A stretch of DNA of 64,000 nt from an uncultured Spirochaetota bacterium (GTDB taxonomy: Bacteria > Spirochaetota > Brevinematia > Brevinematales > JAOACQ01), in NCBI GenBank assembly GCA_963835575.1, contig CAWIGG010000006.1, positions 101,151-165,150 of the forward strand. The letters are read 5' to 3'. Below the pieces are notes generated by a model. It was not told where the DNA came from. It saw only the letters and a program-made list of their open reading frames with translations, and ran no database searches. Position numbers and translations under genes: made by a program. Shown one piece after another: positions 1-16,213 of the stretch (its first letter is position 1; the number at the start of each line of letters is the position of its first letter).

Positions 1-1
1 T

Positions 2-1402
2 TTGAGTTTTCTTACGTTTATGTTTCTCCTTGTCCTGGGCGGTTGTTCCCTGAAGTCCGGGGGCGGCGGGAACTCGGGCGGAACGGGTACACAGAATTCT
101 TCATCGAGCGTAGTTTCTCTGTCTTTTCCGGCCGGAACGGCCGGTGTTTCCACTAATATCGGAAGCCTGACAATTTCAATTCCCTCAGGCGCGCTGGACC
201 ACAACGAAACAATAACGGTCATTCCGTATTTTTATTCTTCAGAACTGGCGGCGGTCAGGGGGATCAGCCCGTTCCCTTCCGGAGTGCAGTTCCTGCCCGA
301 CGGCCTTTCCTTCCTGAAGCCGGTAACCATTGAGATACCGACCGAACTCCCCATGGCCACAAACTCGAATTACGGGATTTTTCTATTTAACAGCCTTTCC
401 AACCGGTGGGAACAGCAGACAAATTCAGGGTTCTGCTTTGATACCGAAATAGTCCGTTATCAGATAAGCCATTTCTGCACATACGGCGTTTCCCCATGGA
501 CCGGTGAAGGTCTCGGGACTTTCGGCCAGGTTCTTGAAACCTCCGGCGGGGATGCGGCCTATGCCGCGTTAAAGGCTTCCATTCTTCAGGGCGGAGCGAT
601 CTTCCAGATGAAAAAGAAAGTCGGCGGGGACACCTACCAGGTCTGCGGCGTCGGGTTTGACGTCCAGTACAGCTACAACGGCGACGAAGACCAGTATCTT
701 GAAACAGTGGGCGACACCTCTTCGACAACCACCTATCTGAACTACAGCGAGGACCGTATTGCTTCCGGAGGCCAGCTGGTCTATACCGCCCTGGTGACGC
801 TTTACTGGAAAAAAGTCGATCTGGAAAAATACAAGGTTGATATGACGTTTAGTGTTACCAGCTCGACTTTCGACCTGGGGGGCGGAGACAGCACCACGCT
901 TTCGGGATACAGCGCCTCATTGAGCTTTACCGTCACGGTCGACCCTTCGACAAACGGCGTGTTTGTCATCGGCATGGACCCGAACTATCCGGCGCTGGAA
1001 TACAGTCCTATGAATCAAAGCCTGGGAGGCTGGACGCTGTCGACGTCGGATTCCGATTTGTGGTTCCAGAACCTCCAGTGCCCTTCAACCCTGGACCTGG
1101 AGGATGGAATATTCGGGGAAATCACCACGGCCCCCGGAACCAGTTATTTTTTTATTTTTCCTGATGATAACATTGCCTCGGTGGAGATGTGGAGCGCTGA
1201 TGAGCATGGAAATCCGGTGTATGCCACGAGTCTTTACCTGTGGGCAATATTAAGGCAGTTTACCGACGAAACAATTGAAAACGACGGGTTCCCCATGGTT
1301 CTTTCCGACGGCTGGAGTTCAAGCGGGTCCGGCGTCATGTACGGGGATATGGGAAGTATTTTTAACGGCAGTTATACGATCAATGTCTCCAAAGTGCAGT
1401 AA
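2..1402 (+). CDS. putative lipoprotein of unknown function (5' end at or just beyond window edge)
   Basis: 466-aa ORF. The N-terminus ...FMFLLVLGGC has a lipobox followed by a Gly/Ser-rich linker. TAA stop. No family recognised. Confidence 0.5.
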   Translation: MSFLTFMFLLVLGGCSLKSGGGGNSGGTGTQNSSSSVVSLSFPAGTAGVSTNIGSLTISIPSGALDHNETITVIPYFYSSELAAVRGISPFPSGVQFLPDGLSFLKPVTIEIPTELPMATNSNYGIFLFNSLSNRWEQQTNSGFCFDTEIVRYQISHFCTYGVSPWTGEGLGTFGQVLETSGGDAAYAALKASILQGGAIFQMKKKVGGDTYQVCGVGFDVQYSYNGDEDQYLETVGDTSSTTTYLNYSEDRIASGGQLVYTALVTLYWKKVDLEKYKVDMTFSVTSSTFDLGGGDSTTLSGYSASLSFTVTVDPSTNGVFVIGMDPNYPALEYSPMNQSLGGWTLSTSDSDLWFQNLQCPSTLDLEDGIFGEITTAPGTSYFFIFPDDNIASVEMWSADEHGNPVYATSLYLWAILRQFTDETIENDGFPMVLSDGWSSSGSGVMYGDMGSIFNGSYTINVSKVQ

Positions 1403-1493
1403 AGCATCCGGAGAATGTGACATAAATTCAAGGCTTCATATCCTTCTGTCATTAAAACGGCTTGACCGGCCAATATTATAGCCTTTGCTTAAT

Positions 1494-1522
1494 TTGACAA
1501 TTTACTACAAGTGTAGTATATT
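1494..1522 (+). promoter_or_regulatory. sigma70-like promoter with embedded palindromic operator
   Basis: TTGACA (1494-1499), 17-nt spacer, TATATT (1517-1522). The spacer and -10 contain the palindrome TACTACaagtGTAGTA (1503-1518). A GAAGGAG SD and the ATG at 1547 follow. Confidence 0.55.
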
Positions 1523-1546
1523 TTATCCTATTTTGAAGGAGAAAAA

Positions 1547-2305
1547 ATGCATAGATATTTGAGGAAGGGGATTTTATTATTGATTCCATTATTGCTTGTT
1601 GTCTTCGGATTGTCATTCGGCGAAAGCCCCGGTACCGATCCTCTCTGGCAGAAAGCCGTTGAAATTGCCGGTAAAAACACAAACTGGATCCCCGGAAGTA
1701 TGGTTATAAAAAACTATGTGCTGGAAGACAATGGTAATGTCAAGAAAGCCGAGGAAATAACAATGAAAGTATACCTGGATGAGAGCAATCAGCTTAAATC
1801 GGATATGGTAAAATATCTGGAAAACGGTGTTGACGTGACGGAAAGAAAGAAAAATGATATTGAGCAGGCGCAGAGGAGAAATAGGAGTACCAATCAAGGT
1901 CAGGGGATGGTTGTGGGCTTTGATAATTTGATTCCTTTCATGCCGGGCGAACAGACAAATATCTCGCTCAGCAATACCGGCCGGAAAGTGACCTATGAAA
2001 ACAGGGAATTCATCATTTACGACTATAAAAGAATAATGATTAGAGGCGAAAGACAGATTGGCAGGGCCTGGCTCGATTCTGTAACAGGCATACCTCTGAA
2101 AATCGTTTATACCGTCGATCCGCTTCCGCAGTATGTATTCAGGATAACGAACGAGGTGGTGTTTCAGACCGGCAGAAAAGGCGGATGGTATCCCGAAAGA
2201 CTGACCGTGGACGGCTCCGGAGGATTCATTCTGTTTAAAATGAATATGAACAGCACGACATTCTTCTCAGATTTCTGGAACCAGGATAAAGTTAAGAAGA
2301 AATAA
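1547..2305 (+). CDS. secreted hypothetical protein
   Basis: 252-aa ORF with a signal peptide (MHRYLRKGILLLIPLLLVVFGLSFG) and an SD upstream. No family recognised with confidence. Confidence 0.55.
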   Translation: MHRYLRKGILLLIPLLLVVFGLSFGESPGTDPLWQKAVEIAGKNTNWIPGSMVIKNYVLEDNGNVKKAEEITMKVYLDESNQLKSDMVKYLENGVDVTERKKNDIEQAQRRNRSTNQGQGMVVGFDNLIPFMPGEQTNISLSNTGRKVTYENREFIIYDYKRIMIRGERQIGRAWLDSVTGIPLKIVYTVDPLPQYVFRITNEVVFQTGRKGGWYPERLTVDGSGGFILFKMNMNSTTFFSDFWNQDKVKKK

Positions 2306-2696
2306 TCAGGGCAAAAGTTAATAACCAAAGAGATGTGAATTTCACCAAGAAGAACGGACCAATTTTTCCTGGTGCCGCTTCAATATTGAATCTTCCGCTA
2401 AGCCGCGCGAAGTCACGCCAATAATTAAAAAGTATTCTTGAAAAATTAATAATTTCACACAGGGCCCACAGAGTTCGCGGAGCTATAATAAAGATTAACT
2501 TGAAAACTCTGTGTCCTCTGTGAACTCTGTATGAAAAACAAATACCAATCTATCCTTCTTTTACTAATAGTTGGAAATCCATTCCGCGCAGCAGATGTTG
2601 CTGTTGGAAAGATTGGTCCCGTACATTGCGATAATATTATCGTAAATCGCTTTTGCCGCGGCAGAAGAATTATGGTATGGGCACAGGCAGATCCCT

Positions 2697-4491
2697 TCAT
2701 CTTCCTTTACTATGATAATATGGACAGCCGTACGGCCCGACCAATAGATCGCCGATTACGGTCCCGGGGCTGACCTCCTGGCCGGCTGAAACTTTGATCG
2801 CGTTCAATTGATTTGTCAGGAACCCTATCGCCGCGCTTGGTTCGAAGACCAGGCTGACTGTATAGGAACTGTTAATATAAATATTCACTGAAACCATAAT
2901 CTGGTAAGGCGGAGTGGAAAGGCTGTTGGTATTGTAATTGATATATTGTATAGTCCCGTAAGTCGGCGATATGATAGCGCTTTTTGTCAGATTGGTTTTA
3001 ATTTTGAGGTCGATGCCGTTATGCGGCTTGCCCGGGCCGCTCCAGTCCGGGGTCGCGAACGCGGCCACGTAATCAATATCATCCGGGTGCGCGTAATGAA
3101 ATTCCAGCGGCATAAATGTGAATTCCTTAAAGCCGCCGGGAACATCTGGCAGATTGTTCGTGTCCCTGCCGAAGGCTAAAACGGTACCGTTTGTTACGCT
3201 GAAGTCGGAAGGCCTCGGTATGTCTCCCGGCTGGTTGACTTTATAGAGTAAAACGCCGTTTGACAGCTGGTAGATCCCCGGAAATGTTTTGCCGTTATAA
3301 TTTGTGTCGCTCGCGGATGTTATTGTAAAATTTATTATTTTCGGGACGGTGTTCGTGTTTAAGTTTATTATTCCCGCGAAGAGCATCGTATTCGCGTTAT
3401 TTCCCAATAGACAGTAATTTCCGGAAAGCGTCATATGCCAGGTTTTACCGTACCAAACGCCTTCCAGTTCTGTTTCAGACGCCGGCTTCATATTTCCCAT
3501 GCCGTTGCCATGGAATTGAGAGGCCGAGCTGGGGATTTCCGATTCGGCGGGAGTGTCGGTAATGATGTCGAAATATTCCCCTCCGGCGACCATGGCGTCA
3601 ACATCCCCTTGATAAAGAGAAGAAGTTGAATTACTGCCTGCGTCGCTCATGCCCTGTAATGTTGATACGTCCGCGTCCGACGGGAAATCGAAGTATTTTT
3701 CAGCAGGGACAGAGTTATTATCCTTGATTTTAAACAGGAAGGTATTGCCGCTTCCCTTTGATATGCCGCTGCCTGCAAACCATGCCCGGTAGGAAGCGGC
3801 GCCGCCGTTCCATTTGCCTGTCAGGAGTTTGGTGAACCGGTGAGTATTTGTGTTCCCCTCCAGGTGTGTTCTTTGGGAATAAGCTGAATTCGTATATTCC
3901 ACATAGCATACCAGGTCTATGTTTATATTGCCCGTTCCTTCATCAAAGTATCCCTGCATGATGCCGCGCTCCCTCTGGCTGGAGGAATATTCACGGTACC
4001 AGCTGAGAAGGCAGTAATCAACGGTCCCGTCTTTTTTACCAGCGAAATAGTTCGCCTGGTCAGCGCTTTCCCGGTTCAGGATTTTATTATAAGTATTATC
4101 GGTCCTTCAAAAATTATAAGGAGATGTGAGTTTGATGTCCCCTGCTGAAGTGCCGCCGGTCATACATTCGTTATAAAATGATCCGGCCTGATAGAGGAAT
4201 TTGTAGATGTTGTCCAGCCCGGTTTTGTTTGTGCCGCTGTCGGTACCGGGATCATAGTCTTTAAATGTATTGTATAGTTCAAAGATCGGTCCTCCCCAAT
4301 TCCAGTTTGCTCTCGACGCTTTTGATGAGCCTTCTTGAAAATCAGGAGCGGCGTTTTTAGCGGCCTCAAAAAAAATATTTTTCTGCGTATTATTATTGCC
4401 GCTGGTGCCGGTATTATTGATATTGTTTTATGCATCCTGTAAAACAAAATGTAATTAACGCCGGAATAATCAGAGAAAGGGATTTTTTCAT
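2697..4491 (-). pseudogene. disrupted lipoprotein gene with C-terminal M23-like segment (1 frameshift + 1 in-frame TGA)
   Basis: The ATG at 4491 encodes MKKSLSLIIPALITFCFTGC (lipobox) but hits TAA after 25 codons. The body frame (NNINNTGTSGNNNTQKNIFFEAAKNAAPDFQEG...) is offset by 1 nt, with the shift near the A/T runs at 4426-4434. It carries an in-frame TGA at 4107-4109 and continues into the 420-aa ORF 2697-3959 (HNGID...AGQEVSPGTVIG). The span is 1795 nt, which is 3n+1. Confidence 0.6.
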
Positions 4492-4676
4492 ATTCAGCCC
4501 CTCTATTAAATTGTATATCAGATAAATTACACAGACGTATGATGGAAGAGTAATTTATAGACATTTTATTATATAATAATAATCCCGGCGAAACAATAAA
4601 AAAACAGGAATGTTTAAAAACAATTTTAAATCAAATTTCCATTTTATTTACTTTCCTTTATGACTTTATTAAAATT

Positions 4677-6596
4677 ATGCCTGAAAGATGGGGTTTTATT
4701 ATGCGGTTGAAACATATTAATAAACACGTCCGGTTTTTTCATCTGATTATTTTATGCTTTTTTTTAACGGGATTATCTTTCGGCGATGCCTGGAAGCTGG
4801 TCTGGAGCGATGAATTCAACAGCAATCAGATCGACAGGACAAAATGGAATTTCGCGCTCGGGGGCATCGGCTTCGGAAATAATGAGCTGGAGTATTATAC
4901 CGACAGGCCGCAGAACGCCTCTGTGGAAAACGGCAGTCTGATCATAAAAGCCGTAAAAGAACCCTATATGAGCTGTTCTTATACTTCGGCAAAAATGACG
5001 ACGCAGAGGAAAGCATTCTGGACATACGGCCGGTTTGAGATAAGAGCGAAGCTTCCCTCGGGCAAAGGCATCTGGCCGGCATTCTGGCTGATGCCGGAGG
5101 ATTGGGAAAGCCCGAATAGCGAATACGGCGGATGGCCTTCATGCGGCGAGGCTGACATTATGGAGCTGATCGGAAGCGATCCTTCGACTGTATTCGGGAC
5201 CCTTCATTATGGGGTTCCCTGGACTCACACGGGAGGTTCAAACACATTGCCCGCCGGGATGAGCTTTTCCGATGATTATCATATCTTCGCCCTGGAATGG
5301 GAACCGGGAGAATTCCGCTGGTATGTTGACGGCAGGCTTTACCTGACGCAGAACAGCTGGTTCGGCAGGAGGGAGACGGAAGCTTATGAATACACATACC
5401 CGGCCCCTTTTGACCGGGATTTCTTCCTTCAGCTTAACCTGGCCGTCGGCGGGAACTGGCCGGGCAGTCCCGGCAGTAATACGCGGTTTCCTCAAACATT
5501 AGCAATTGATTATGTCCGTGTGTACCGGAAGGACAATTACCCGCCGCTGAAGGAAAGGAAGGCGCCGGTTATCACTGAAAGCGTTGTACCGCTGAGGCCG
5601 GCGCTGCCTGATGGAAATCTTATCTATAACGGGAATTTCGATGAGACAAACATAAAAGAATACCCTCTTTACAGTGTTGTCGAGGATTCCATGATTTCGG
5701 ACACAGCGGCAAACGGTTACTGGCAGTTCCTGACCGGCTTCGCGGGCGAGGGGACTTTTTCGATTAATAAAGGCGAATTCAGGGCCGGCATAAAACTGCC
5801 GGGCAGGGAAAGCTATTCCATCCAGCTTGTCCAGATCCCCATCCTGCTTGAGAAGGAAGCGGCATATAAGCTGTCCTTTGACGCCCGGGGGGAAAAACCG
5901 CGTACGATCATGGTCAAGCTGACGGAAATCGGCGGTTCCTGGACGGCTTATTCAGGCCTGAAATTTTTCAACCTGACAACTAAAATGGAAAATTACAGCT
6001 TTGTCTTTACCATGAAAGGGGAAACGGATAAAAGGGCGCGCCTGGAATTCAATATGGGCCTGGACCTGTCATCCGTTTATCTTGATAATATCAGTTTTAC
6101 AAAGATAAACAGCGCGAAGCTGGAAAAAACGCCTTTACCGGACGGCAATTATATTTACAACGGCACGTTTGACCAGGGATCAAACAGGATGGTTGAGTGG
6201 CATTTGACGGCAGACGGCGGAGCTTCAGCAGAAGCTTCTGTTGGAAGTGAAATTCAGGAACGGAACGCAAAAATCACGATAAAAGATCCGGGGAAGGAAG
6301 CATCTTCCATAATGTTCTATCAGGAAGGACTGAGAATTGAAAAGGGAAAATCGTATATCGTCCGGTTTTCCGCGAGGTCTTCAGAGAAGAGGAGCATCCA
6401 GGCCGGGTTAACCGGGAGCGGCAATGATCCGCGGTCTTATTACAATCAGACGGTAATTCTTTCGCCCGATATGGAAATATACGCGCTTGAATTTAAAATG
6501 AAACAGGAGACCGATAAAAACGCGCGGCTGGTTTTCCGGCTGGGAAAAGAAAACCCGCAGGTTATTATTGACGATGTCAGTATGTTTGTAAAATAG
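4677..6596 (+). CDS. glycoside hydrolase family 16 (laminarinase/beta-glucanase type) with two C-terminal CBM4/9-like modules
   Basis: Shows WKLVWSDEFN, NNELEYYT, YGRFEIRAKLP and GIWPAFWLMP, plus the catalytic E-x-D-x-x-E as GEADIME. There are two repeats starting DGN(L/Y)IYNG(N/T)FD. It has a signal/TM N-terminus, and the start could be the second ATG (4701). Confidence 0.9.
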   Translation: MPERWGFIMRLKHINKHVRFFHLIILCFFLTGLSFGDAWKLVWSDEFNSNQIDRTKWNFALGGIGFGNNELEYYTDRPQNASVENGSLIIKAVKEPYMSCSYTSAKMTTQRKAFWTYGRFEIRAKLPSGKGIWPAFWLMPEDWESPNSEYGGWPSCGEADIMELIGSDPSTVFGTLHYGVPWTHTGGSNTLPAGMSFSDDYHIFALEWEPGEFRWYVDGRLYLTQNSWFGRRETEAYEYTYPAPFDRDFFLQLNLAVGGNWPGSPGSNTRFPQTLAIDYVRVYRKDNYPPLKERKAPVITESVVPLRPALPDGNLIYNGNFDETNIKEYPLYSVVEDSMISDTAANGYWQFLTGFAGEGTFSINKGEFRAGIKLPGRESYSIQLVQIPILLEKEAAYKLSFDARGEKPRTIMVKLTEIGGSWTAYSGLKFFNLTTKMENYSFVFTMKGETDKRARLEFNMGLDLSSVYLDNISFTKINSAKLEKTPLPDGNYIYNGTFDQGSNRMVEWHLTADGGASAEASVGSEIQERNAKITIKDPGKEASSIMFYQEGLRIEKGKSYIVRFSARSSEKRSIQAGLTGSGNDPRSYYNQTVILSPDMEIYALEFKMKQETDKNARLVFRLGKENPQVIIDDVSMFVK

Positions 6597-6652
6597 TTTT
6601 TTTATTAGAAATAACTAATCATAGAGTATAATTCTTAAGTAATATGTGTTGT

Positions 6653-7204
6653 AACCACAGATTACACAGATGTCACAGATGATAATTTTGAAAGTATCAG
6701 TGTAATTATGCTATAATTGTGAATATGAAAAAAGAAGAAAGTAAAGATCGTCGGGCTTATGGGATTATTGGTGCGGCTATTGAGGCACACAAAGAATTAG
6801 GATCAGGATATCTGGAAGCAGTATATTAGGAAAGCCTTGAATTAGAATTTAAACTCAGAAAAATCCCTTATATATCTCACCCCATTCTTAAGGTTTTTTA
6901 TAAAGATATTGAACTGAAAAAATATTATGTGCCTGATTTTATCGTATATAATGAAGTGATTCTGGAAATTAAAGCGGAAAGATGTTTGACGAGAGTAGAT
7001 GAGGCGCAAATAATAAACAGTTTAAAGAATTCGGGAATGAAAGTAGGTTTGCCGATTAATTTTGGTGAAAGCTCATTAAAATTCAAACGTTTTGTTTACT
7101 GAAACATATTTCATATTTCGTTTATTGTTAATAGAATGAATTCGAATTGAGATTTAATATTGATACCACAGAAATAATCTGTGAAATCAGTGAAATCTGT
7201 GGTT
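6653..7204. repeat. inverted-repeat-bracketed cassette carrying a GxxExxY ORF (CACAGAT-word arms)
   Basis: The left arm is AACCACAGATTACACAGATGTCACAGATG (6653-6681). The right arm at 7176-7204 reverse-complements to AACCACAGATTTCACTGATTTCACAGATT, matching at about 25/29 positions. Confidence 0.7.
6725..7102 (+). pseudogene. GxxExxY protein (PD-(D/E)XK-like) with in-frame TAG
   Basis: The translation MKKEESKDRRAYGIIGAAIEAHKELGSGYLEAVY*ESLELEFKL...PDFIVYNEVILEIKA... is collinear with the intact paralog at 11561-11962. The TAG at 6827-6829 sits where the paralog has CAG (EAVYQEAL). This gene is absent from the ORF track. Confidence 0.8.
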
Positions 7205-7294
7205 TCAGCCAAAAAAATTAAAAACTGAAAAAGTATACTATATAAGGATATAATTCTATATCTTTTTCTGCCGATTCTATAACAGGAGTAGAAA

Positions 7295-9097
7295 ATGGCA
7301 AACGGTCAGGAAAACGGGATACTGGAAGCCTCGCAGGAATATTCCAGGATGGCTGAGCTTCTCAAGGCGGAACGGGAGCCGGAAGCGGCCGCAATGGTCA
7401 AGCAGATCCTGGAATCCGGCGACAGCCTGCAGGACAAGATCCGCAAGATCGAGCTTATTGACGCGCAGGAAATCGGCAAAGTCATCGATGAAGCCCCTCT
7501 CAGTAAAGAGGAGGTTCAGGAGATCATCCGGAATAAGCATGTTTCCACCGATGAGGTTGCCCAGAAGAACAGTGAAAAGATCAAGATAAAGCAGATGAGG
7601 AACCCATTTTTCTTCTATTTCTTCAAGGATTATAAGAAGATCCGTGAATTCGGGAAATATTCGGGATTTATCCGTTTCGGATTGAATATCTCGGGGATCA
7701 AATTTAATTATAATCCCGTAAAATCCCTTTTTGCCGGATTGAAGAAGGACGCCGGCGAACTGATCAATGTTTTGAACTTTGTGCTGGACAAGGGCTGGAT
7801 GGATCTGGACAAGCTTGATTACAACCTGATCATCGTATTCAAACGCCTCTGCGAAGCCTTAACCGCGGTAAAAGCGCCGAAGTCTTCCTATTCATTGAAG
7901 CAGATGCTGGAGAATTATAAAGAGATTGAAACGTATTTTTTAACCTGTCAATACCAGGTTGAATATCCCGATATCATCCGTTCCAGCATTATCCAGGTTC
8001 TGGAAAAACAGCACAGGCCGGCCGGACTAGTCGAGCTGGCGGAAATTCAGGTGCGGCGGATTTTGTTTCAGGACGATGCGCCCTGCCTTTATAATTGTAT
8101 CCTTGCCCTGAATATGAGCGAATACCGGCGTTTTATAAAAATAGGCGATATGATCCGAAACCAGCAGGGCGGCGTTATCAATACGTTTTCTTTTGACTGC
8201 ACGGCCCTTATTCAGCAGAAGATCAACGTTTATATTAATGATAAAACAAAGGCCTGGCAGAACCTTCTCCAGGAAAAGGCCGAGATCGGCAAAATCCAGT
8301 ATTTTCTCAAGCATTTCATCCGGCAGGATTCCTCGGGCTACAGAAGCTACAGCTTCACCCTGCTGACGGATTTTTATGATTTTTCCTTCTATGAAGTAAA
8401 AGAAGAGAGCTTTAGTTATGATAAGAACAATACCGCCAGGCTTGCCCTGAAATTTTTCGGCAAGTTTATGAGCGAGTTTGAGAATTTCTTTATTGACAGG
8501 ATCGATATAGAGGGTTACGGGCCCGTCAGGGTTTTCAGCAGGGAGGTTTTCCAGCTGGAGATCGACAAGCTGAAGCGCGGGCTCGGCAAATTTTCGGACG
8601 CGAGCTATACATATCCCATCATTTCGAGGCGCGAGTTTTTTGAGCAGAAGACCTCCAAGAAGGAAGTCATGCCGCCGCCGCCGGTGCTCACTTTGATACA
8701 GACAGCGGATTCCCTTTCCGATATACTGGTCGGCATCGGCACCAAGCTGGGAAATATCCATATCAACCAGAAAAAAGGCCCTTCCGCCAACGGTTCTCAG
8801 AGCAGTCTCGCCCCTCTCGAGATTTCCGTAACACGGTCGCATAATGTCAGTATTCCCTACTGGTCCAACAGGATCCTCAGCGCGGGATTTTTAAAAGACA
8901 AGTTTTTTTCCGACGCCGTGGCTACAATAGCCAGCTTATGCTTCCTCTCCGCCATATACTTTTATAATATGCGTCTCTATTCCATTCTGGAAAAAGAAAT
9001 GAAGATAAGCAATATGATCGCTGAAACGCGAAAAAGCCTCGAGAGGCTGGCCGATGTGGTGACGTTTGAAAAAATCAGGAAAACGCAGTCGATTTAA
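7295..9097 (+). CDS. hypothetical protein (600 aa)
   Basis: Long ORF with an AGGAG-like SD (ACAGGAGTAG) 5 nt upstream. The N-terminus is acidic and coiled-coil-like. No domain recognised. Confidence 0.6.
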   Translation: MANGQENGILEASQEYSRMAELLKAEREPEAAAMVKQILESGDSLQDKIRKIELIDAQEIGKVIDEAPLSKEEVQEIIRNKHVSTDEVAQKNSEKIKIKQMRNPFFFYFFKDYKKIREFGKYSGFIRFGLNISGIKFNYNPVKSLFAGLKKDAGELINVLNFVLDKGWMDLDKLDYNLIIVFKRLCEALTAVKAPKSSYSLKQMLENYKEIETYFLTCQYQVEYPDIIRSSIIQVLEKQHRPAGLVELAEIQVRRILFQDDAPCLYNCILALNMSEYRRFIKIGDMIRNQQGGVINTFSFDCTALIQQKINVYINDKTKAWQNLLQEKAEIGKIQYFLKHFIRQDSSGYRSYSFTLLTDFYDFSFYEVKEESFSYDKNNTARLALKFFGKFMSEFENFFIDRIDIEGYGPVRVFSREVFQLEIDKLKRGLGKFSDASYTYPIISRREFFEQKTSKKEVMPPPPVLTLIQTADSLSDILVGIGTKLGNIHINQKKGPSANGSQSSLAPLEISVTRSHNVSIPYWSNRILSAGFLKDKFFSDAVATIASLCFLSAIYFYNMRLYSILEKEMKISNMIAETRKSLERLADVVTFEKIRKTQSI

Positions 9098-9256
9098 TTG
9101 ATCATATTAAAATGAAGTTTCTGCGGACGCGGAATAATTTAAAACAGAACTTTCTTATATTCAGGCCCGTTTTATAATATCTTCTTTCCTGCGGCAGGAC
9201 AAATCATCCTTTTCTTGTATTGCGTGAATCATTTATTCTATACCTGATTGGTGCCC

Positions 9257-9306
9257 GATAATAAAAACAGGCGGCTCAACGGGAGGGTATCCGTCCGGCC
9301 GCCTGT
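9257..9306 (-). terminator. rho-independent terminator (minus strand)
   Basis: The minus strand reads ACAGGCGGC-CGGACGGATACCCTCCCGTTGA-GCCGCCTGT followed by TTTTTATTAT, a 9-bp GC-rich stem with a U-tract. There is no U-tract on the plus strand. Confidence 0.6.
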
Positions 9307-9577
9307 CTATAGAGAGGTACTTTCTGATGAAGAGAATCGCGGTTTTCTAATTATTAATTAATGGAGATTAATTGTATGAAGACGAGGGGGTTGTCCCTGT
9401 AAAGCCGTAATGGAATCCCGCCGGCGCATCGGTTCTGCTTCGCGGCGGGCTAAGTATAGGCTTTTGCCGCCGGCGGGTATCTATATAAAATTTTGGGGCA
9501 ACCCCATGAGACCCTGAAAAAAACCTCCTTTGTTTATTTGTTTTATAGGAAAGATTTTCAAATACTACATTCGTAGT
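9262..9577 (-). ncRNA. candidate ~0.3-kb structured non-coding RNA (unclassified)
   Basis: It is bounded by a near-consensus minus-strand promoter (see 9557-9612) and the terminator at 9257-9306. No ORF of 60 aa or more is present. Long-range helices are GGGGTTGCCCC/GGGACAACCCC and CCCGCCGGCG/CGCCGGCGGG, with alternative pairings. The strand assignment is uncertain, because one helix has a U.G pair on the plus strand versus a C.A mismatch on the minus strand. Confidence 0.3.
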
Positions 9578-9612
9578 ACATATAATATACTACGCGTGTA
9601 GTATTATGTCAA
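9557..9612. promoter_or_regulatory. overlapping divergent promoters, each with a TACTAC-N4-GTAGTA palindrome in its spacer
   Basis: Plus strand: TTCAAA (9557-9562), 18 nt, TATAAT (9581-9586), with TACTACattcGTAGTA at 9563-9578. Minus strand: TTGACA (complement of 9607-9612), 17 nt, TATATT (complement of 9584-9589), with TACTACgcgtGTAGTA at 9588-9603. Confidence 0.5.
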
Positions 9613-9750
9613 GTGTTTTTGAAAATATTTTTTCCTCCGGTATTGACAAAATTGAATATTGCTTTTAAATAAATGTAATTAAATTAATGGACGCGGATTA
9701 TCGGAAGACCGGATAATCTGCAAAATTATTAATATTCGGGAAACTGTTTT

Positions 9751-10341
9751 ATGTGTAAGGAATTTAGGTATTCAATACTTCATCTTTTAGCTGTGTTTTC
9801 ATTAATTTTATTAATACTGAGCGCCTGCGATCTGCTTCAAGACCCCCCTTCCGACCGGCAGAAGACGCTGGGAGAATGGATGTATAACAGGGTAGTTTAC
9901 ATTGACGGCAGTTTTCAGACATATAACGGCAATATTATTACAATTACCTCCAGCGGCGGATCGGTCACAGTTTATACCAATTCTTCTTACACAGCTGTTG
10001 TTTTTAATGAAAAAAATTCATGTCTCTGGGAGACCTGTAATACAAACGGGAATATTATAACAAATACGGGAACCTGGTCCATAAAAGAAACGGACAAATT
10101 GCTGACTTTAACGAAGGTTAATTACACGAATATCCTTTTTATTTTTACTAATGTTTATTTCGTTTATAATTATGCCTATACCTATGACTTTATTGATGAT
10201 AATACTATAAAAATTACTGCTGAAATTGACAGCTATAACTGCATCTTTGAGAATAATACGCCGACAAATTATTCGACAAATAATATTGATATCTTTGCCG
10301 CCGCCGGGGTGAATTATGTTGAGATCGGAAAGATAAGATAG
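9751..10341 (+). CDS. lipoprotein of unknown function (AT-rich)
   Basis: 196-aa ORF with a signal peptide and lipobox (LILLILSAC). The composition is rich in N, T and Y. Confidence 0.6.
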   Translation: MCKEFRYSILHLLAVFSLILLILSACDLLQDPPSDRQKTLGEWMYNRVVYIDGSFQTYNGNIITITSSGGSVTVYTNSSYTAVVFNEKNSCLWETCNTNGNIITNTGTWSIKETDKLLTLTKVNYTNILFIFTNVYFVYNYAYTYDFIDDNTIKITAEIDSYNCIFENNTPTNYSTNNIDIFAAAGVNYVEIGKIR

Positions 10342-10442
10342 GATCCGGTATAATATAGTAAAGCGGATTAAAAAAATAAAACGGGAGAAATGTTATTTTA
10401 GAGATAATTATTTCCGTCATCATCGCTATCTTTGTTCTGGCA

Positions 10443-10802
10443 GTGGTTAATTTTGTGGTCAGGAAAAACATCTCCTTTGCCAGGAGGAATTATAAAACAA
10501 AAAACGTGGAGATCAATCTAAGCAGGACCCCATGCCCGGTCTGCGGCACAATTATAAAGGAAGGGGAAAGGGTCAAAACAACCGCTTATTCCCTGGGAAA
10601 GGAAAAGCTGGTCCTTGTTTACGGCTGTCCCGCCTGTTATCCCCCCGGTAAAGTCATAAAAAGAATATGCCCGGTCTGCAAAAATGAATTGAGAAATAAG
10701 GATTATATCCTGGCCAAAATGTGGGAAGAGGAAAACAAACTCCGTCTTCATATCATGGGCTGTTCGATATGCAAACCGAATTCTTTTGTTGTAAAAAGCT
10801 GA
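10443..10802 (+). CDS. small cysteine-rich (4x CxxC) zinc-ribbon-like protein; start uncertain
   Basis: CPVC, CPAC, CPVC and CSIC motifs are present. The frame is open from 10380 and encodes a TM-like EIIISVIIAIFVLAVVNFVV, but the only canonical start is the GTG at 10443. Confidence 0.5.
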   Translation: MVNFVVRKNISFARRNYKTKNVEINLSRTPCPVCGTIIKEGERVKTTAYSLGKEKLVLVYGCPACYPPGKVIKRICPVCKNELRNKDYILAKMWEEENKLRLHIMGCSICKPNSFVVKS

Positions 10803-10953
10803 ATTCCCCCGTTCCGCGGACAGTAAAAAATTAAACTTCAGGGCTGGCAATTTTTCCAAACTATAATATAATTATTGGGCTTTTGAATTATTGATTAAAA
10901 AAAATATATTCAATCTGGCTGTCATTTTTCTGTAAGGATAGAGGAGGCTTTTT

Positions 10954-11505
10954 ATGCTAGTACCGGCTGTATTAGGCGGCATTGTTGTAGTGATATTGCT
11001 CTGGGTGATGATGGCTTATAACGGTTTTATCAAGCTGAGGAACCAGGCGGATGAATCCTGGAGCGGTATAGACGTCCAGCTCAAGCGGCGCTATGACCTG
11101 ATCCCGAACCTTGTGGAAACCGTCAAAGGCTACGCCAAGCATGAGCAGTCCACTTTCGAGAAAGTGGTCCAGGCCAGGAACGCGGCCATGAGCGCCCAGA
11201 AAGTGGAAGATAAAGCCCAGGCGGAGAACATGCTTTCAGGCGCCCTGAAATCTATTTTTGCCCTCGCTGAAAACTATCCGGAGCTCAAGGCGAACCAGAA
11301 TTTCCTCGATCTGCAGAAGAACCTGGCGGAAATTGAGGACCAGCTCCAGAACGCCAGAAGATATTACAACGCCGTTGTCCGCGACTATAATATCCAGTGC
11401 GAAAGCTTCCCGTCTGTCATACTTGCCGGCATGTTCGGCTTCAAAAAACGGGCCTTCTTTGAAATAGCGGAAGCCGAAAAGCAGAATGTCAAGGTGCAGT
11501 TTTAA
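10954..11505 (+). CDS. lemA: LemA family protein
   Basis: N-terminal TM segment followed by YNGFIKLRNQADESWSGIDVQLKRRYDLIPNLVETVKGYAKHEQ, the typical LemA core. Confidence 0.9.
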   Translation: MLVPAVLGGIVVVILLWVMMAYNGFIKLRNQADESWSGIDVQLKRRYDLIPNLVETVKGYAKHEQSTFEKVVQARNAAMSAQKVEDKAQAENMLSGALKSIFALAENYPELKANQNFLDLQKNLAEIEDQLQNARRYYNAVVRDYNIQCESFPSVILAGMFGFKKRAFFEIAEAEKQNVKVQF

Positions 11506-11520
11506 AGGGAACTGGGTTAT

Positions 11521-11992
11521 CCGCTAAGCCACGCCAAGGAACGCTAAGAAGAATATATAATTGGTAAAAAAAATGGCTGAAGATTTATTATTTAAGGAAG
11601 AAGTTTTTAAAATCATGGGTTGTGCTATGAAAGTGCAGGATGAGTTAGGGAACGGTTTTCTGGAAGCGGTTTATCAGGAAGCTTTAGAAATTGAATTAAA
11701 GCTCATGCAAATCCCTTTTGAATCTCAGAAAAGACTGAGAATTAATTATAAAGGACAGCTGCTTCAAAAAGAATATATTGCCGATTTAATATGCTTTGAC
11801 AAAATAATATTGGAATTGAAAGTTGAAGAGAAGCTGACTTCTATTGATGAAGCTCAGATTTTAAATTATTTGAAAGTTACGGGTTTATCGCTTGGACTCA
11901 TTATAAATTTCGGATCAAAGAAGAAACTTGAGTGGAAACGTTTTGCAAACACTCAACAATAACCTTAGCGTATCTTCGCGATCCTTAGCGGG
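11521..11992. repeat. inverted-repeat-bracketed cassette carrying a GxxExxY ORF (CGCTAAG-word arms)
   Basis: The left arm is CCGCTAAGCCACGCCAAGGAACGCTAAGAAG (11521-11551). The right arm at 11963-11992 reverse-complements to CCGCTAAGGATCGCGAAGATACGCTAAGG. Confidence 0.7.
11561..11962 (+). CDS. GxxExxY protein (PD-(D/E)XK nuclease-like family)
   Basis: Contains LGNGFLEAVYQEALEIEL (the GxxExxY motif) and ADLICFDKIILELKV (a D...ExK-like motif). The start is either TTG at 11561 or ATG at 11573. Confidence 0.85.
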   Translation: MVKKMAEDLLFKEEVFKIMGCAMKVQDELGNGFLEAVYQEALEIELKLMQIPFESQKRLRINYKGQLLQKEYIADLICFDKIILELKVEEKLTSIDEAQILNYLKVTGLSLGLIINFGSKKKLEWKRFANTQQ

Positions 11993-12025
11993 AGCCCCGA
12001 AAGTGTTATAGGGAAGGAGTTGTTT

Positions 12026-13750
12026 ATGAAAAGATTTTTTATATTTATATTTCTGTTTCTTTCAATATCCCTTTCTTACGGCGAATATTTCAGCATTAAA
12101 GATTACAATATCCATGTCAAAGTCCTGAAAGACGGTGTACTGGACATTAACGAAAGAATTTCCGTCACTTTTACCGAGCCCAGGCATGGTATTTTCAGGG
12201 ATATTCCATACGGCTATACTATCACAAAGGCGCAAGGAGGCGAATCGGCCGAATATCCACTTCTTTTCGGGGATCGATATCAGGACCTTCTTTATGACAT
12301 TTCGGTCCAGAACTTTCATTATCAGGTGGAAAAAAACAATGCCATGATCCGCATCCGGATCGGTTCCAAAAACGCTTATGTGGAGGGCGACCAGGTTTAT
12401 ATTATCAATTATAAAGTTTATGGAGAGGTCCGGAGATTCAACGATTATTCCGTAATTTACTGGAACCTGACCGGCAATGAATGGCCGGTTGAAATAGATT
12501 ATGCGGTGTTCTCAATGGAACTGCCTTCCTCAGTCCCGTTAAGCTCAAAGGATTATAGAATTTATTCCGGGGTATACGGCTCGAAGGAAAACGACGCCTG
12601 CTATTATAAATATGAAGCGGATGAGCTTTCCGGAAGGACAATCCGGGCTTTAAATCCGAATGAGGGAATAACCGCCTGGATCAAGCTTCCGAAGGATTAT
12701 TTTGTAAAAAATGATATACTGGACAAACTTTTATGGCTTCAGAACAACTCGGGGCTGTTCGCTATCATTATACCTTTTTTAGTGCTGATCATCGCGTTTC
12801 TGGTCTGGAACAAATACGGGCGCGATGTAAAGATCGTGAAAATGGTCCAGTTCAAACCGCCGGAAGATATGACGCCTGCGGAGGCGGGGGTCATCATCGA
12901 TGATGTGACGGATAACAGGGATGTTCTGTGCCTGATCTATTACTGGGCGGCGGCCGGGTATCTGGAAATAGAAGAGCTGGAGAAGGGGACGCTCTTCAAA
13001 TCAAAAGACTTCAAATTGATTAAAAAGAAAGAACTGCCGGACAACGCTAAAGAATACGAGAAAACCATGTTCAATGGGCTTTTTGAGGGAAAAGAGACGG
13101 AAGTCCTGATCAGTTCGCTCAAAGACACTTTTTATACGACTTTCGACAGCGTTAAAAGCCAGCTCAATGATTATATCGGCAGTCAGGCTTTTTATACGCC
13201 GGGTTCGCGCGGCCTCCGCGCTCTCTTTATATTCCTTGCCATGGTCTTTGTTTTCGGCGGATTTTTCCTGACGTTTTTTGCCGGATGGAGCGCTCTTTAT
13301 ATCGCTTCGGGTATTGTATCGGCGGTCATTTTAATTATTTTCGGGATTTATATGCCAAAGAAGACAGCTAAAGGCCTTGAGAAATACAAAGTCCTTGAAG
13401 GTTTCAAACTTTTTATTGAAAAGGCTGAAAAGCCGAAGCTCGAGGCCCTTATGAAAGAAGACCCGAATTATTTTGACAGGACGCTTTCCTATGCCATAGC
13501 GTTCGGAATGGGCGATAAATGGGCCGCGAAATTCGCCGGCATTATCACGCAGCCGCCTTCGTGGTACCATGGGCACAGCTTTACCGCTTTCTCCACGGCG
13601 TATTTTATCAGCTCGCTGAACTCGAGCATCTCCGGTATGAGCTCGACGATGACATCCCGCCCTTCCAGCAGCGGCTCAAGCGGCGGCGGCGGATTTTCCG
13701 GCGGAGGAGGCGGGGGCGGGGGCGGGGGCGGGGGCGGAGGCAGCTGGTAG
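12026..13750 (+). CDS. DUF2207 domain-containing membrane protein with poly-Gly tail
   Basis: GGAAGGAG SD 6 nt before the ATG at 12026. It has a signal peptide, a large N-terminal domain, several TM helices, and the C-terminus SSGSSGGGGFSGGGGGGGGGGGGGGSW. This family is the usual genomic partner of LemA. Confidence 0.8.
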   Translation: MKRFFIFIFLFLSISLSYGEYFSIKDYNIHVKVLKDGVLDINERISVTFTEPRHGIFRDIPYGYTITKAQGGESAEYPLLFGDRYQDLLYDISVQNFHYQVEKNNAMIRIRIGSKNAYVEGDQVYIINYKVYGEVRRFNDYSVIYWNLTGNEWPVEIDYAVFSMELPSSVPLSSKDYRIYSGVYGSKENDACYYKYEADELSGRTIRALNPNEGITAWIKLPKDYFVKNDILDKLLWLQNNSGLFAIIIPFLVLIIAFLVWNKYGRDVKIVKMVQFKPPEDMTPAEAGVIIDDVTDNRDVLCLIYYWAAAGYLEIEELEKGTLFKSKDFKLIKKKELPDNAKEYEKTMFNGLFEGKETEVLISSLKDTFYTTFDSVKSQLNDYIGSQAFYTPGSRGLRALFIFLAMVFVFGGFFLTFFAGWSALYIASGIVSAVILIIFGIYMPKKTAKGLEKYKVLEGFKLFIEKAEKPKLEALMKEDPNYFDRTLSYAIAFGMGDKWAAKFAGIITQPPSWYHGHSFTAFSTAYFISSLNSSISGMSSTMTSRPSSSGSSGGGGFSGGGGGGGGGGGGGGSW

Positions 13751-13901
13751 AAAGAAATAATTCACAGGAAGGCGGGAAGACGGGAAGACGGGAAGGTTTT
13801 TAATGATTTATTTATTTTCATTGCCGTTCAAGTTATAAATTTATTAAACTGTGATTTGCTAGAAATTTGAAAGAACCGGAATTTCACACAGAGTGCACAG
13901 A

Positions 13902-15602
13902 CAGACTGTGTGAAAAAGGCGGTGTAAGACAATAAAGGCGGAGAAAAATCCTCAAATTTATTTTAATAAGGTATAATATGTAATCAAATTTGAGGTGTGT
14001 AAGATGAACCATATAACAGGAGAGCCAAGAGACCAGATAGTACTTTACGCGGAAACTATTGATGGTTTGATAGAAGAGAAGAACCCTGTAAGAATTATAG
14101 ACGCATATGTGAGCAGACTAAACATCAGGAGGTTGGGATTCAAAATTAAAGAGGCGAAAAAAGGGCGTCCATCCTACACAGCGGATGTATTGTTGAAAAT
14201 ATATATTTACGGATATTTGAACAAAGTCAGGACCACGAGGAAATTAGAAAACGAATGTAAAAGGAATACGGAACTGATATGGCTGACCTGCCGCTTAGCG
14301 CCTGATTTTAAGACCATAGCGGATTTCAGAAGGGATAATATTAAGGGCATAAAAAACATTTTCAAAGAGTTTTTGAAAGTATGCCGCAAATTAGAACTGC
14401 TGACATTTAAATTAACAGCGACAGATGGAACGAAAATAAGTGGGCAAAACAGTCTGGGTAATATTTATAGGCGGGAAAGCATTGAAGGAGTTGAGAAAAA
14501 GATTAATGAAAAAATAGACAAATATCTTTTGGAATTGGATAAAAATGATAAATCGGAAGAAAACGAGTTTGAGTTTTTATCCAGCAACATTGAAAAAAAG
14601 CTGGACAGCCTCAAGACAAGAAAAGAAAAAGTAGAAGCGATAAAAAAAATGTTTGAGGCCGATCCGGAACTTGAAATCGTTTACGGGAATGATCCCGACG
14701 GCAGAATTGGGAAAGATAAAGGGAAAACGGATGTTTTGTACAACGCGCAGATAGCAGTGGACGAAAAGAATAAATTGATTGTCGCGGTGGATGTAACCAA
14801 TGAAAGTAATGATGTTCATCAAGCGGGAAATATGGTTAATAAAGTTGAAGAAATAAAGAAAGAACTTGAAGCCGAACCGGGATTAAAAACCATACATGTC
14901 CTGGATGCCGGATATTATTGCGAAAGTGAGATATTACCGCTTACAGACGGGGGTCATGAAATCTATATTCCAAGCCCGCGCGATGAAAAAGAAAAAAAGT
15001 CCAGGTACAAAGAGCAGCAGAAAGAAAGTATCCCGGCAAAAGGATATCTGGCAGAAGATTTCAAGATTGATAAAGAGAAGAACCAGTTGATTTGTCCGCA
15101 AGGATTACGATTAAATAATCAAAGTGTATATCAGGATAAAAACACGGGGATTACTGTAGCGGAATTCAAGTGCAGGAACGAGAATTGTGAGAAGAAGCAT
15201 TTATGCACAAAAAGCAAAGAAGGCAGGACGGTAAAGTTATCGGTGCGAAAGGAAGATATGGATAAATTCGATGAGAAGGTCCGAAGTGAATTGGGGCAAA
15301 AGATTGTTGCAATCAGAAAAGAGTTGGCAGAACATCCATTTGGAACAATAAAAGGAAATTTTGGTTATAATAATTTCTTGCTGAAGGGGATTGATAAAGT
15401 AAAAAGCGAGTTTAATTTCACGGCATTTATCTATAATTTTAAAAGAGTTCTGAATATTGCTGGTTTTGATAAGTTATTAGCCGCAATATAGTCTGAATTT
15501 CAATGATTATCAGTAATTTTTTATTCAGGCTCTTCTTTAAAGTAAGCAGGAACCTTTAGATGCCTGATCTTATAAATGTATTCTCTTTTTTCACACAGTC
15601 TG
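13902..15602 (+). mobile_element. IS1182-family insertion sequence (~1.7 kb)
   Basis: 16-bp terminal inverted repeat CAGACTGTGTGAAAAA (13902-13917, and complement of 15587-15602) flanking a single transposase ORF. AGA is present on both flanks and may be a 3-bp duplication. Confidence 0.75.
14004..15491 (+). CDS. IS1182-family DDE transposase
   Basis: The N-terminus PVRIIDAYV...GRPSYTADVLLKIYIYGYLNKVRTTRKLENECKRNTELIWL...PDFKTIADFRRDN is the InsH-N/DUF772 type. The C-terminus HPFGTIKGNFGYNNFLLKGIDKV is also characteristic. GAGGTG SD before the ATG at 14004. Confidence 0.8.
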   Translation: MNHITGEPRDQIVLYAETIDGLIEEKNPVRIIDAYVSRLNIRRLGFKIKEAKKGRPSYTADVLLKIYIYGYLNKVRTTRKLENECKRNTELIWLTCRLAPDFKTIADFRRDNIKGIKNIFKEFLKVCRKLELLTFKLTATDGTKISGQNSLGNIYRRESIEGVEKKINEKIDKYLLELDKNDKSEENEFEFLSSNIEKKLDSLKTRKEKVEAIKKMFEADPELEIVYGNDPDGRIGKDKGKTDVLYNAQIAVDEKNKLIVAVDVTNESNDVHQAGNMVNKVEEIKKELEAEPGLKTIHVLDAGYYCESEILPLTDGGHEIYIPSPRDEKEKKSRYKEQQKESIPAKGYLAEDFKIDKEKNQLICPQGLRLNNQSVYQDKNTGITVAEFKCRNENCEKKHLCTKSKEGRTVKLSVRKEDMDKFDEKVRSELGQKIVAIRKELAEHPFGTIKGNFGYNNFLLKGIDKVKSEFNFTAFIYNFKRVLNIAGFDKLLAAI

Positions 15603-15817
15603 AGAGAGCACAGAGTAAGCTATAATTCTTTATCTGCATAAGATTAAACAATATCCCTTTGTACTCCGTGTTCTCTGTGCGGGAAAAATAATTTTTTAGG
15701 ATTCTGAAACATTATTTTTTTGCTGTCTAAATTGCAATTTCAAATCTGGAAATTAAATTTTATTTCTAAAATCTCCAGATTTTTCTTCGTGTCTTCCCGC
15801 CTTCCTGTAAAACCCGT

Positions 15818-16213
15818 CTATTTTTCTTCGACCTTTTTTATGATGATGTAAATTCCCGCTCCGATGATCAGCTCGGTAAAGAGAAGAAGGAGCCAGTTCA
15901 GGAGCGCCGGATAGCTTCCGGGAAGGCCCACGGCGAATTTCGAGAGAATAATGCGGGCAATCCAGAAGATCAGGATAATGTACATTGAGGTCCGGAGAAG
16001 CTTCTTATCGACGGCGGTAAACATGCTGACAAGCAGTATGATGCCGGCGAAAAGCTCCACAATACCGAAGATCACTTCAAGGGCCAGGGTGTATCTGAGC
16101 GTGAAATAACTTTCCTCAATGCCTGGAATGATCCCCAGGAGCCCTAATATCAGAAAGAACACCGCGATGAGAAAAATGAGAAGGTTGATGGGAGTGACTT
16201 TGTGTTTAGCCAT
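15818..16213 (-). CDS. small integral membrane protein (about 4 TM)
   Basis: 131-aa hydrophobic ORF with an AGGAGG SD 6 nt upstream, lying directly downstream of the ATPase gene. Confidence 0.6.
   Translation of the reverse strand: MAKHKVTPINLLIFLIAVFFLILGLLGIIPGIEESYFTLRYTLALEVIFGIVELFAGIILLVSMFTAVDKKLLRTSMYIILIFWIARIILSKFAVGLPGSYPALLNWLLLLFTELIIGAGIYIIIKKVEEK

Follow-up and report, generated by a model that had tools for sequence, protein, structure and literature searches.

A GxxExxY cassette bracketed by inverted heptamer-word arrays in a spirochaete lemA-DUF2207 spacer, one member of a large class

The lemA-DUF2207 locus

The window analysed here is a 64,000-nucleotide (nt) stretch from an uncultured Spirochaetota bacterium (GenBank assembly GCA_963835575.1, contig CAWIGG010000006.1, positions 101,151 to 165,150 of the forward strand), and the element under study is a small cassette lying in it between lemA and the gene for DUF2207. 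The upstream host gene lemA (10954–11505, plus strand; PF04011) and its downstream host partner (12026–13750, plus strand; PF09972 and PF20990) share the orientation of the cassette, which occupies positions 11521–11991 (471 bp) of their 520-nt spacer and consists of one intact GxxExxY (PDDEXK_3) gene and two flanking arms. The left arm (11521–11548, plus strand; CCGCTAAGCCACGCCAAGGAACGCTAAG) carries the words CGCTAAG, CGCCAAG and CGCTAAG with the terminal prefix ..TATC, and the right arm (11964–11991) is the inverted three-word array, CGCTAAG, CGCGAAG and CGCTAAG when read on the minus strand. Each arm is 28 nt long and holds three CGCNAAG heptamers at a period of exactly 10 nt, and the two arms match at 22 of 28 positions (79% complementary). 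With up to three mismatches allowed, the arm pattern was found three times in the window and not once in 100 shuffles.

A sequence-only reading, made by a model from the letters of the window and a list of its open reading frames (ORFs), had proposed imperfect inverted repeats of tandem CGCTAAG-type words around a unit of 472 bp, starting 16 nt after the lemA stop and ending about 20 nt before the Shine–Dalgarno (SD) sequence of DUF2207. The repeats were confirmed. The left arm does begin 16 nt after the lemA stop (11503–11505), and the right arm, which starts 1 nt past the GxxExxY stop, ends 17 nt before the SD sequence (GGAAGGAG, 12009–12016); only the right end had been placed one base too far.

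The GxxExxY gene (11573–11962, plus strand) runs from an ATG to a stop codon at 11960–11962 and encodes 129 amino acids, with an alternative TTG start at 11561, upstream of the ATG. Its leader is A-rich and has no SD sequence. Promoter-like sites were absent between the left arm and the start codon, and the arms aside neither promoter-like nor terminator-like sites were found from the lemA stop to the DUF2207 start. A GC-rich stem with a T-run, as in intrinsic terminators or attenuators, was found neither at the arms nor elsewhere in the spacer. Judged from this layout, the gene is probably expressed through read-through from lemA.

The GxxExxY protein

The window protein was matched to PF13366 (PDDEXK_3) with E = 1e-40 and 139 bits (cut-off 22) and to TIGR04256 with E = 4e-42 and 143 bits (cut-off 35). 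The residues that are invariant among 38 homologues, including G28, E31, Y34, D71, E81 and K83, are all kept, in agreement with the earlier description of the cargo as an intact PD-(D/E)XK-like ORF. An AlphaFold (AF2) model was obtained with a predicted local distance difference test (pLDDT) score of 91, and its best fold matches in the PDB were Cas4 SSO0001 (E = 6e-5) and lambda exonuclease. On these best matches the protein is, as modelled, a minimal PD-(D/E)XK nuclease, and by its profile scores it is a clear member of the GxxExxY/PDDEXK_3 family. The two closest homologues include one that is 78% identical and was taken as a paralogue. The PF13366/TIGR04256 family comprises more than 2,200 clusters at E ≤ 1e-10, a lower bound from one word-limited search.

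The PADLOC hidden Markov models of defence systems gave no match for GxxExxY, the best match among the PHROGs phage families reached only E = 0.1, and no copy was found in phage genomes by tblastn. The cassette holds no recognised transposase, since Pfam and NCBIfam gave PDDEXK_3 and GxxExxY only, and it had no match among PDB sequences. In the literature, no functional study of PF13366 or TIGR04256 was found, the protein being mentioned only in passing.

Filled and empty sites

The nearest lemA-DUF2207 pairs were obtained through homologues of DUF2207, the best LemA in the genome collection being 66% identical. The nearest relatives found lie on two Logan contigs (LemA 77% identical, DUF2207 52% and 48%). 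Their spacers, of 79 nt (L165, 2922–3000) and 67 nt (L167, 219–285), are without GxxExxY and contain no more than a GC hairpin with a T-run behind it, which resembles a terminator or attenuator; in the window this hairpin is missing and the cassette stands in its position. The empty sites that the sequence-only reading had proposed to look for among relatives do therefore exist. Among 80 diverse lemA loci, about 24 more distant ones with a detectable downstream DUF2207 showed no GxxExxY, a few larger gaps being unexamined, and the distance between the two genes was mostly within 100 nt.

The same comparison was made for two pairs of cultured bacteria. In Sphingomonas parapaucimobilis a cassette (L276, 1443–1908) lies between fabD and fabG, within the fatty-acid synthesis operon, and the fabD-fabG spacer of S. 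paeninsulae measures 33 nt; the other top-listed two-piece matches to fabD and fabG have a similarly short span, among the matches listed. In Bacteroides finegoldii a cassette lies between radA and the gene for a flavin adenine dinucleotide (FAD)-dependent protein, where the spacer of Parabacteroides distasonis is 13 nt. Both of these filled sites have perfect terminal inverted repeats of 11–12 nt (TTCACGCGAAG/CTTCGCGTGAA and TTCACCACAGAG/CTCTGTGGTGAA). From the filled and empty sites and the perfect terminal repeats it follows that arms and gene stand at filled sites as one unit. The 471-bp unit of the window can thus be regarded with confidence, on comparison of sequences, as a discrete cassette inserted into the lemA-DUF2207 spacer.

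In the S. parapaucimobilis cassette the ATG follows immediately on the third word of the left arm (GACGCGAAGATG), and the annotated coding sequence includes the right arm in its 3' end. A gap of 695 nt between radA and the FAD-dependent gene in Phocaeicola was considered as a further cassette and rejected, as it contains an ordinary gene. The only other contig with an identical LemA (L001, from Logan ERR10755942) terminates within the GxxExxY gene; this end may be an assembly break through paralogous cassettes.

Word arrays across the GxxExxY family

Flanking repeats were examined in a sample of 80 metagenomic loci with GxxExxY relatives 53–65% identical, 71 of which had both flanks; the best upstream/downstream inverted repeat of each locus was scored against 20 shuffles per locus. 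The score was at least 15 at 45 of the 71 loci, whereas shuffles never rose above 14, and most of the remaining loci showed the same bracket pattern more weakly. Other GxxExxY copies are therefore bracketed by inverted repeats, as had been expected of them, both here and in a second copy in the window (6725–7102, described below). Nearly all flanking repeats were heptamer arrays at 8–10 nt spacing, with words such as CCACGAAG-GA-CACGAAG..., CCGCGAATGAACGCGAAT..., CGCGAAT, CACAGAG, CGCTAAT, CACGGAG and CACGAAA. At both ends, the prefix A-(T/A)-C (A in 78%, T or A in 96%, C in 98%) stands in front of the outermost word.

Flanking arrays were present at about 85% of GxxExxY genes and at about 4% of unrelated loci, and the density of arrays was 108 per 100 kb at GxxExxY loci, against 9.5 at unrelated lemA loci, where the matches were mostly coding-period artefacts. 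False positives of the array scan also came from GGC-rich repeats of period 9 or 12 at positions of the DUF2207 3' end (L021, L024, L049 and L060); in the window, the C-terminus of DUF2207 is a long glycine run (GGGGFSGGGGGGGGGGGGGGSW, 13680–13747).

The usual layouts, with array orientation given by arrowheads, were '>>> gene <<<', which is that of the window, '>>> gene >>> <<<' and '>>> <<< gene >>> <<<'. Some GxxExxY genes were embedded in long runs of hairpin units, and loci L083, L096 and L100 showed a layout of gene plus hairpin and tandem cassettes. The same layout was present around more distant family members in cultured genomes, with CACAGAG in Bacteroides finegoldii and Bernardetia, CGCGAAG at an 8-nt period in Sphingomonas and CGCGGAT in Gemmatirosa. 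Within the arrays of GxxExxY loci a second protein family was not found, and only host genes lay between successive hairpins.

At one locus (L112, 1–1052) a 94-nt hairpin unit, made of left arm, loop, right arm and SD sequence, is repeated 3.4 times upstream of the gene at 100% identity, and a 146-nt unit is repeated 2.6 times downstream of it. The last left arm there shares the reading frame of the ORF (MNANERE...), and gene callers accordingly append arm-encoded N-terminal extensions (HEG or TKN repeats, for example).

The window unit is, with good confidence, one member of a large coherent class tied to abundant interspersed word arrays. Where the sequence-only reading had treated the cassette as a local oddity, its local facts hold, and what they describe is one case of a family-wide architecture. 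No description of the word-array repeats was found in the literature by family names, accessions or literal arrays, although coverage was incomplete and an earlier description is possible; the GxxExxY cassette with inverted word arrays is widespread and, it appears, so far undescribed.

Conservation of the words

Left and right arms were compared column by column at 42 loci, with the word columns defined on the left arm alone. Identity between the arms was 82% in word columns and 61% in spacer columns (Fisher p = 2e-10). Likeness also extends to the three words of a single arm, a feature that stems do not need, and clusters of the protein track both word class and prefix. Loci L118 and L139 represent one genomic site in two organisms (flanking proteins 50–62% identical, nuclease 68%); the words are CACGAAG throughout in one and CACGGAG throughout in the other, those of three tandem right arms among them. 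Word conservation, likeness within arms, tracking of the protein clade and this concerted change point to sequence-specific recognition by something that co-evolves with the cassette, and the cis-encoded nuclease would be the obvious candidate for the reader of the words.

The arms also bear on the main rival explanation, an RNA-level module. In such a module the arms would pair in the polycistronic lemA-GxxExxY-DUF2207 transcript as a long interrupted stem, with local word hairpins elsewhere; the stem would be cut by RNase III or by GxxExxY acting as an RNA endonuclease, and the nuclease mRNA would be excised or stabilised and the flanking genes uncoupled, as in the ORF-bearing intervening sequences of 23S rRNA. 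Joined through a short loop, the cassette arms fold at −32.6 kcal/mol (z = −5.6), and the arm–arm stem is included in the minimum free energy fold of the whole 520-nt spacer, although the z of that full fold is only −1.3. Weak fold matches of the GxxExxY model to tRNA-splicing endonucleases, and the co-orientation of cassettes with their neighbours, likewise favour an action on RNA. The mismatches argue the other way: more than half of them are pair-breaking transversions, in the typical case G/T at the fourth word position, with no excess of G–U-compatible changes (45 against 32; the RNA-stem asymmetry test was not significant). Moreover, the words are conserved beyond the needs of pairing and alike within an arm, partnerless solo arms are common, and Rfam 15 covariance models (E-value mode) gave no relevant family match in positions 1–16000 of the window or in 25 related loci. 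An RNA-level module, with the effects described, is accordingly considered unlikely, if still the strongest of the competing explanations.

Other word elements in the window

A second cassette (6653–7204, plus strand) is built of CACAGAT words at a 9-nt period, with AACCACAGATTACACAGATGTCACAGAT at 6653–6680 and its inverted copy at 7177–7204. The GxxExxY gene inside it (6725–7102) is a pseudogene 49% identical to the intact copy, with an in-frame TAG in place of Q in the VYQE motif and further invariant residues altered; both arms are intact despite the decay of the gene. A solo arm of the same CGCTAAG class as the intact cassette (2395–2422, plus strand; CCGCTAAGCCGCGCGAAGTCACGCCAAT) differs from the arm pattern of the latter by 2 mismatches and has neither an inverted partner nor an ORF. 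Close to it lies an unstranded, gene-less word hairpin (2458–2531) of CACAGAG type with a 9-nt period, whose arms (2458–2482 and 2507–2531) give a fold of −30.8 kcal/mol (z = −5.6). Two word classes are therefore adjacent at 2395–2531, in a gene-less segment between convergent ORFs.

A third bracket (13763–15808, unstranded) is made of CGGGAAG/CACGAAG words, with a left arm (CACAGGAAGGCGGGAAGACGGGAAGACGGGAAG, 13763–13795) of 8-nt period that begins 13 nt past the DUF2207 stop and a right arm (CTTCGTGTCTTCCCGCCTTCCTGT) at 15785–15808. It lacks GxxExxY and contains a CACAGAG-type hairpin split by an insertion sequence (IS) of about 1.7 kb, which sits in the second word of the hairpin with an apparent 3-bp duplication, AGA. 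This IS has inverted repeats CAGACTGTGTGAAAAA at 13902–13917 and 15587–15602 and a transposase gene at 13995–15491 (DDE_Tnp_1_6 and DUF772).

The decayed copy allows another explanation to be weighed, in which the cassette is the inert relic of an old insertion, without function today: its inverted repeat would be the decaying remains of, for instance, a hairpin or terminator, and its gene would be kept for an unrelated cellular role. This would account for arms that are only 79% complementary, for a neighbouring copy that is already a pseudogene and for the long residence of the L118/L139 cassette at one site. It is nevertheless improbable, as word periodicity within the arms is exact, the arm pattern recurs in the window, the pseudogene copy still has intact arms, and conservation of words over dozens of unrelated loci implies constraint.

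Gene-less arrays and strand bias

An exact three-word CACGAAG array was found in 105 IMG/VR stretches, and in these 926 kb a generic scan counted 46 hairpins and 364 arrays, those of several word classes often being neighbours. A GxxExxY gene was not found in the 926 kb by tblastn with 41 queries. The IMG/VR loci (L168–L272; for example L182, L195, L198 and L199) include high-GC contigs crowded with arrays, mostly in one orientation per contig, and their word classes are CACGAAG, CGCGAAG, CGCGGAG, CACAGAG, CACAGAT and CGCTAAT. Between the few '> ... <' pairs that lie 200–600 nt apart in these loci, no consistent ORF indicated another protein family. Gene-less arrays outnumber the gene in a cultured species too: a 24.8-kb fragment of B. 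finegoldii has one GxxExxY gene and six CACAGAG arrays with the same terminal prefix, together with a CACAGAT-type hairpin between the phosphoglycerate mutase gene and thrC. Gene-less hairpins also occur at unrelated lemA loci, and one lies beside a putative groES/groEL-like pair, unconfirmed by domain search, in a Patescibacteria metagenome-assembled genome (L011).

The arrays are placed with a marked strand bias. Of 320 cases, 86 had the purine-rich orientation no more than 40 nt behind the stop of a long ORF pointing the same way, whereas the mirrored arrangement was counted 19 times in 320. The distance from stop codon to first word peaked at 4–6 nt (144 non-redundant arrays, L082–L283 and the window), so that the upstream TGA or TAA often contributes to the terminal TGAWCC/TAACC (TGATCC, TGAACC, TAACC). 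GxxExxY genes are co-oriented with the upstream neighbour at 42 of 50 loci and with the downstream neighbour at 44 of 51 (about 85%), and left arms often provide SD-like purine runs right before the start codon. The strand bias and the distance peak both count in favour of the RNA-level module discussed above.

They would also suit arrays that are independent cis-elements of host or phage, REP-like and serving mRNA stability, termination or translational coupling, with GxxExxY as a passenger that tends to land among them or to be retained beside them and does not act on them. The 364 IMG/VR arrays without a nearby gene, in several adjacent classes, fit this explanation, as do the fixed orientation at stop codons, the SD-like runs supplied by left arms and the gene-less hairpins in conserved operon spacers (phosphoglycerate mutase-thrC and the unconfirmed groES/groEL-like pair of L011). 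A passenger would hardly be flanked by arrays in about 85% of cases, against about 4% of unrelated loci, and three further findings stand against independence: word class and protein clade vary together, the orthologous L118/L139 site saw a joint change of all its words, and arms and gene arrive as one unit with perfect 11–12 nt terminal inverted repeats. Independent cis-elements are thus rated as quite unlikely, below the RNA-level module and above an inert relic.

Comparison with known systems

RAYT is a REP-associated tyrosine transposase of HUH/Y1 (IS200/IS605-like) type, and the repetitive extragenic palindromic (REP) element is a single imperfect palindrome of 20–40 nt with a GTAG-type head. 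The picture of REP/REPIN with RAYT reportedly goes back to work by Nunvar in 2010, Bertels and Rainey in 2011 and Ton-Hoang in 2012. The cassettes resemble it in having a small enzyme gene between inverted copies of a short repeat, in gene-less repeats that are dispersed intergenically and far outnumber the gene (the solo arm at 2395 in the window; the six arrays of B. finegoldii), in repeats at gene 3' ends, in a gene that may be a long-term resident and in a repeat class that co-varies with the enzyme clade. They differ in the enzyme, which is PD-(D/E)XK (PF13366) rather than HUH/Y1, in the repeat, which is about three 7-nt words at 8–10 nt spacing with non-palindromic solo arms common rather than a single palindrome, and in that several GxxExxY paralogues with their own word classes can coexist. 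With the wrong enzyme and the wrong repeat, the cassette system is not a member of REP/RAYT.

The ORF of 23S rRNA intervening sequences belongs to PF05635 and is an Avd-like four-helix bundle. ORF-bearing intervening sequences of this kind were reportedly described from Leptospira and Coxiella by Ralph and McClelland in 1993. The likeness lies in a unit of about 0.4–0.7 kb with pairable inverted repeats around one small ORF, inside a transcribed host unit. The cassette is not an intervening sequence of this kind: it stands between protein genes, its ORF is PF13366, and its arms are periodic words instead of a continuous stem; no rRNA match was found in positions 1–16000 of the window.

A further comparison is with IS elements that have derivatives like miniature inverted-repeat transposable elements (MITEs), and with transposons such as Mu and Tn7, whose ends bear several subterminal repeats bound by transposase. 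Shared features are terminal inverted repeats, repeated words of protein size close to both ends, gene-less derivatives composed of the two ends, and sites that are filled in one genome and empty in a related one. The cassette differs from an IS or MITE in its size of about 0.47 kb, in the lack of a target-site duplication, in a single ORF that is a 129-aa nuclease domain and in a placement strongly biased in strand relative to host transcription. Having neither transposase nor duplication, it is not an IS/MITE member.

Free-standing homing endonuclease genes include PD-(D/E)XK types, such as I-Ssp6803I, and like the cassette are small nuclease genes of patchy distribution between normally adjacent, intact host genes. 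They are not known to be bracketed by inverted word arrays or to leave gene-less hairpins. The sites of the cassettes are many and unrelated (lemA|DUF2207, fabD|fabG, radA|FAD), and this diversity argues against one cognate homing site. Integron cassettes with attC sites are similar as promoter-less, co-oriented and tightly packed ORFs, each followed by an imperfect palindrome, but the word-array cargo is always of one family, the palindromes are word arrays, and no integrase or attI context is known for them, no search having been aimed at one. Two further resemblances, one between a DnaA box and the terminal T-K-A-W-C-C-R-C and one between the end repeats of phage Mu and CACGAAA/CGCGAAA, were noted and dropped as unsupported.

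Proposed mechanism

The explanation favoured on balance, with considerable reserve, is that of an inserted cassette of a widespread class whose nuclease acts on its own word arrays. The GxxExxY nuclease would bind the arrays as a series of sites along the same face of the DNA, the word spacing of 8–10 nt being about one helical turn with about three words per arm, and would cut at or near the conserved terminus. Through such cuts, arrays and cassette alike would be spread, homogenised or maintained. REP/REPIN with RAYT would be the parallel in logic, though not in enzyme or repeat anatomy, which are unrelated. We infer that the words are read by GxxExxY itself, that the protein acts on DNA and that the unit is, or once was, mobile.

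Several observations weigh against this explanation. Distant members of the family in Prevotella nigrescens (L273), Persicobacter (L277) and Fusobacteria (L164) have direct flanking word repeats, for example ACAAAT three times per side, and Treponema saccharophilum (L162) has one inverted repeat of 11 nt only. A mutual-information scan for specificity residues gave no clean one. Beyond the own repeats of the palindromic termini, a target-site duplication was absent from 46 non-redundant element ends, and no pair of near-identical cassettes was seen at different sites; of the earlier proposal of an inserted, possibly mobile module, the insertion is upheld by filled and empty sites, and mobility stays putative. 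The divergence of the L118/L139 pair points to long residence rather than recent movement. Of two near-identical strains (L100, 830–1420, and L105, 1100–1500), one has a 192-nt segment between two direct hairpins that the other lacks; the segment holds an apparent 5' remnant of a second GxxExxY (...KREAYVIVGAT..., by eye from the translation). This polymorphism is explained by recombination between the direct hairpins and not by transposition, and it shows one route from a cassette to a gene-less hairpin. Since most arrays have no gene nearby, another factor could make or maintain them, and the strand bias fits a role at the RNA level at least as well as one at the DNA level.

A broader formulation was also considered, which is held more tentatively and is given somewhat less than even weight. 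Here the GxxExxY proteins would be the enzymatic partners of phylum-spanning, unrecognised 'heptamer-word arrays', each clade reading its own 7-nt word, with three copies in every arm, and would represent a second, mechanistically independent REP/RAYT lifestyle. Behind operon stop codons, cuts at the terminus would give rise to cassettes and gene-less hairpins, copy them or make them uniform. The range of the arrays, in this tentative formulation, would extend over Bacteroides, Sphingomonas, spirochaetes, bacteria of the candidate phyla radiation (CPR) and many soil lineages.

Significance

The link of GxxExxY to a short, variable and defined DNA word gives an uncharacterised PD-(D/E)XK family a testable role, and places the cassette class with systems that pair a repeat with a cognate enzyme. 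The word arrays themselves are abundant repeats that immediately follow stop codons within core operons (fabD-fabG, radA, the thr operon and probably groES-groEL). They are also present in well-studied gut Bacteroides. Possible consequences of such repeats concern the expression of operons, rearrangement of the genome and assembly. Should the specificities of the nuclease clades prove to be programmable 7-nt ones, these small enzymes would be interesting as sequence-reading nucleases.

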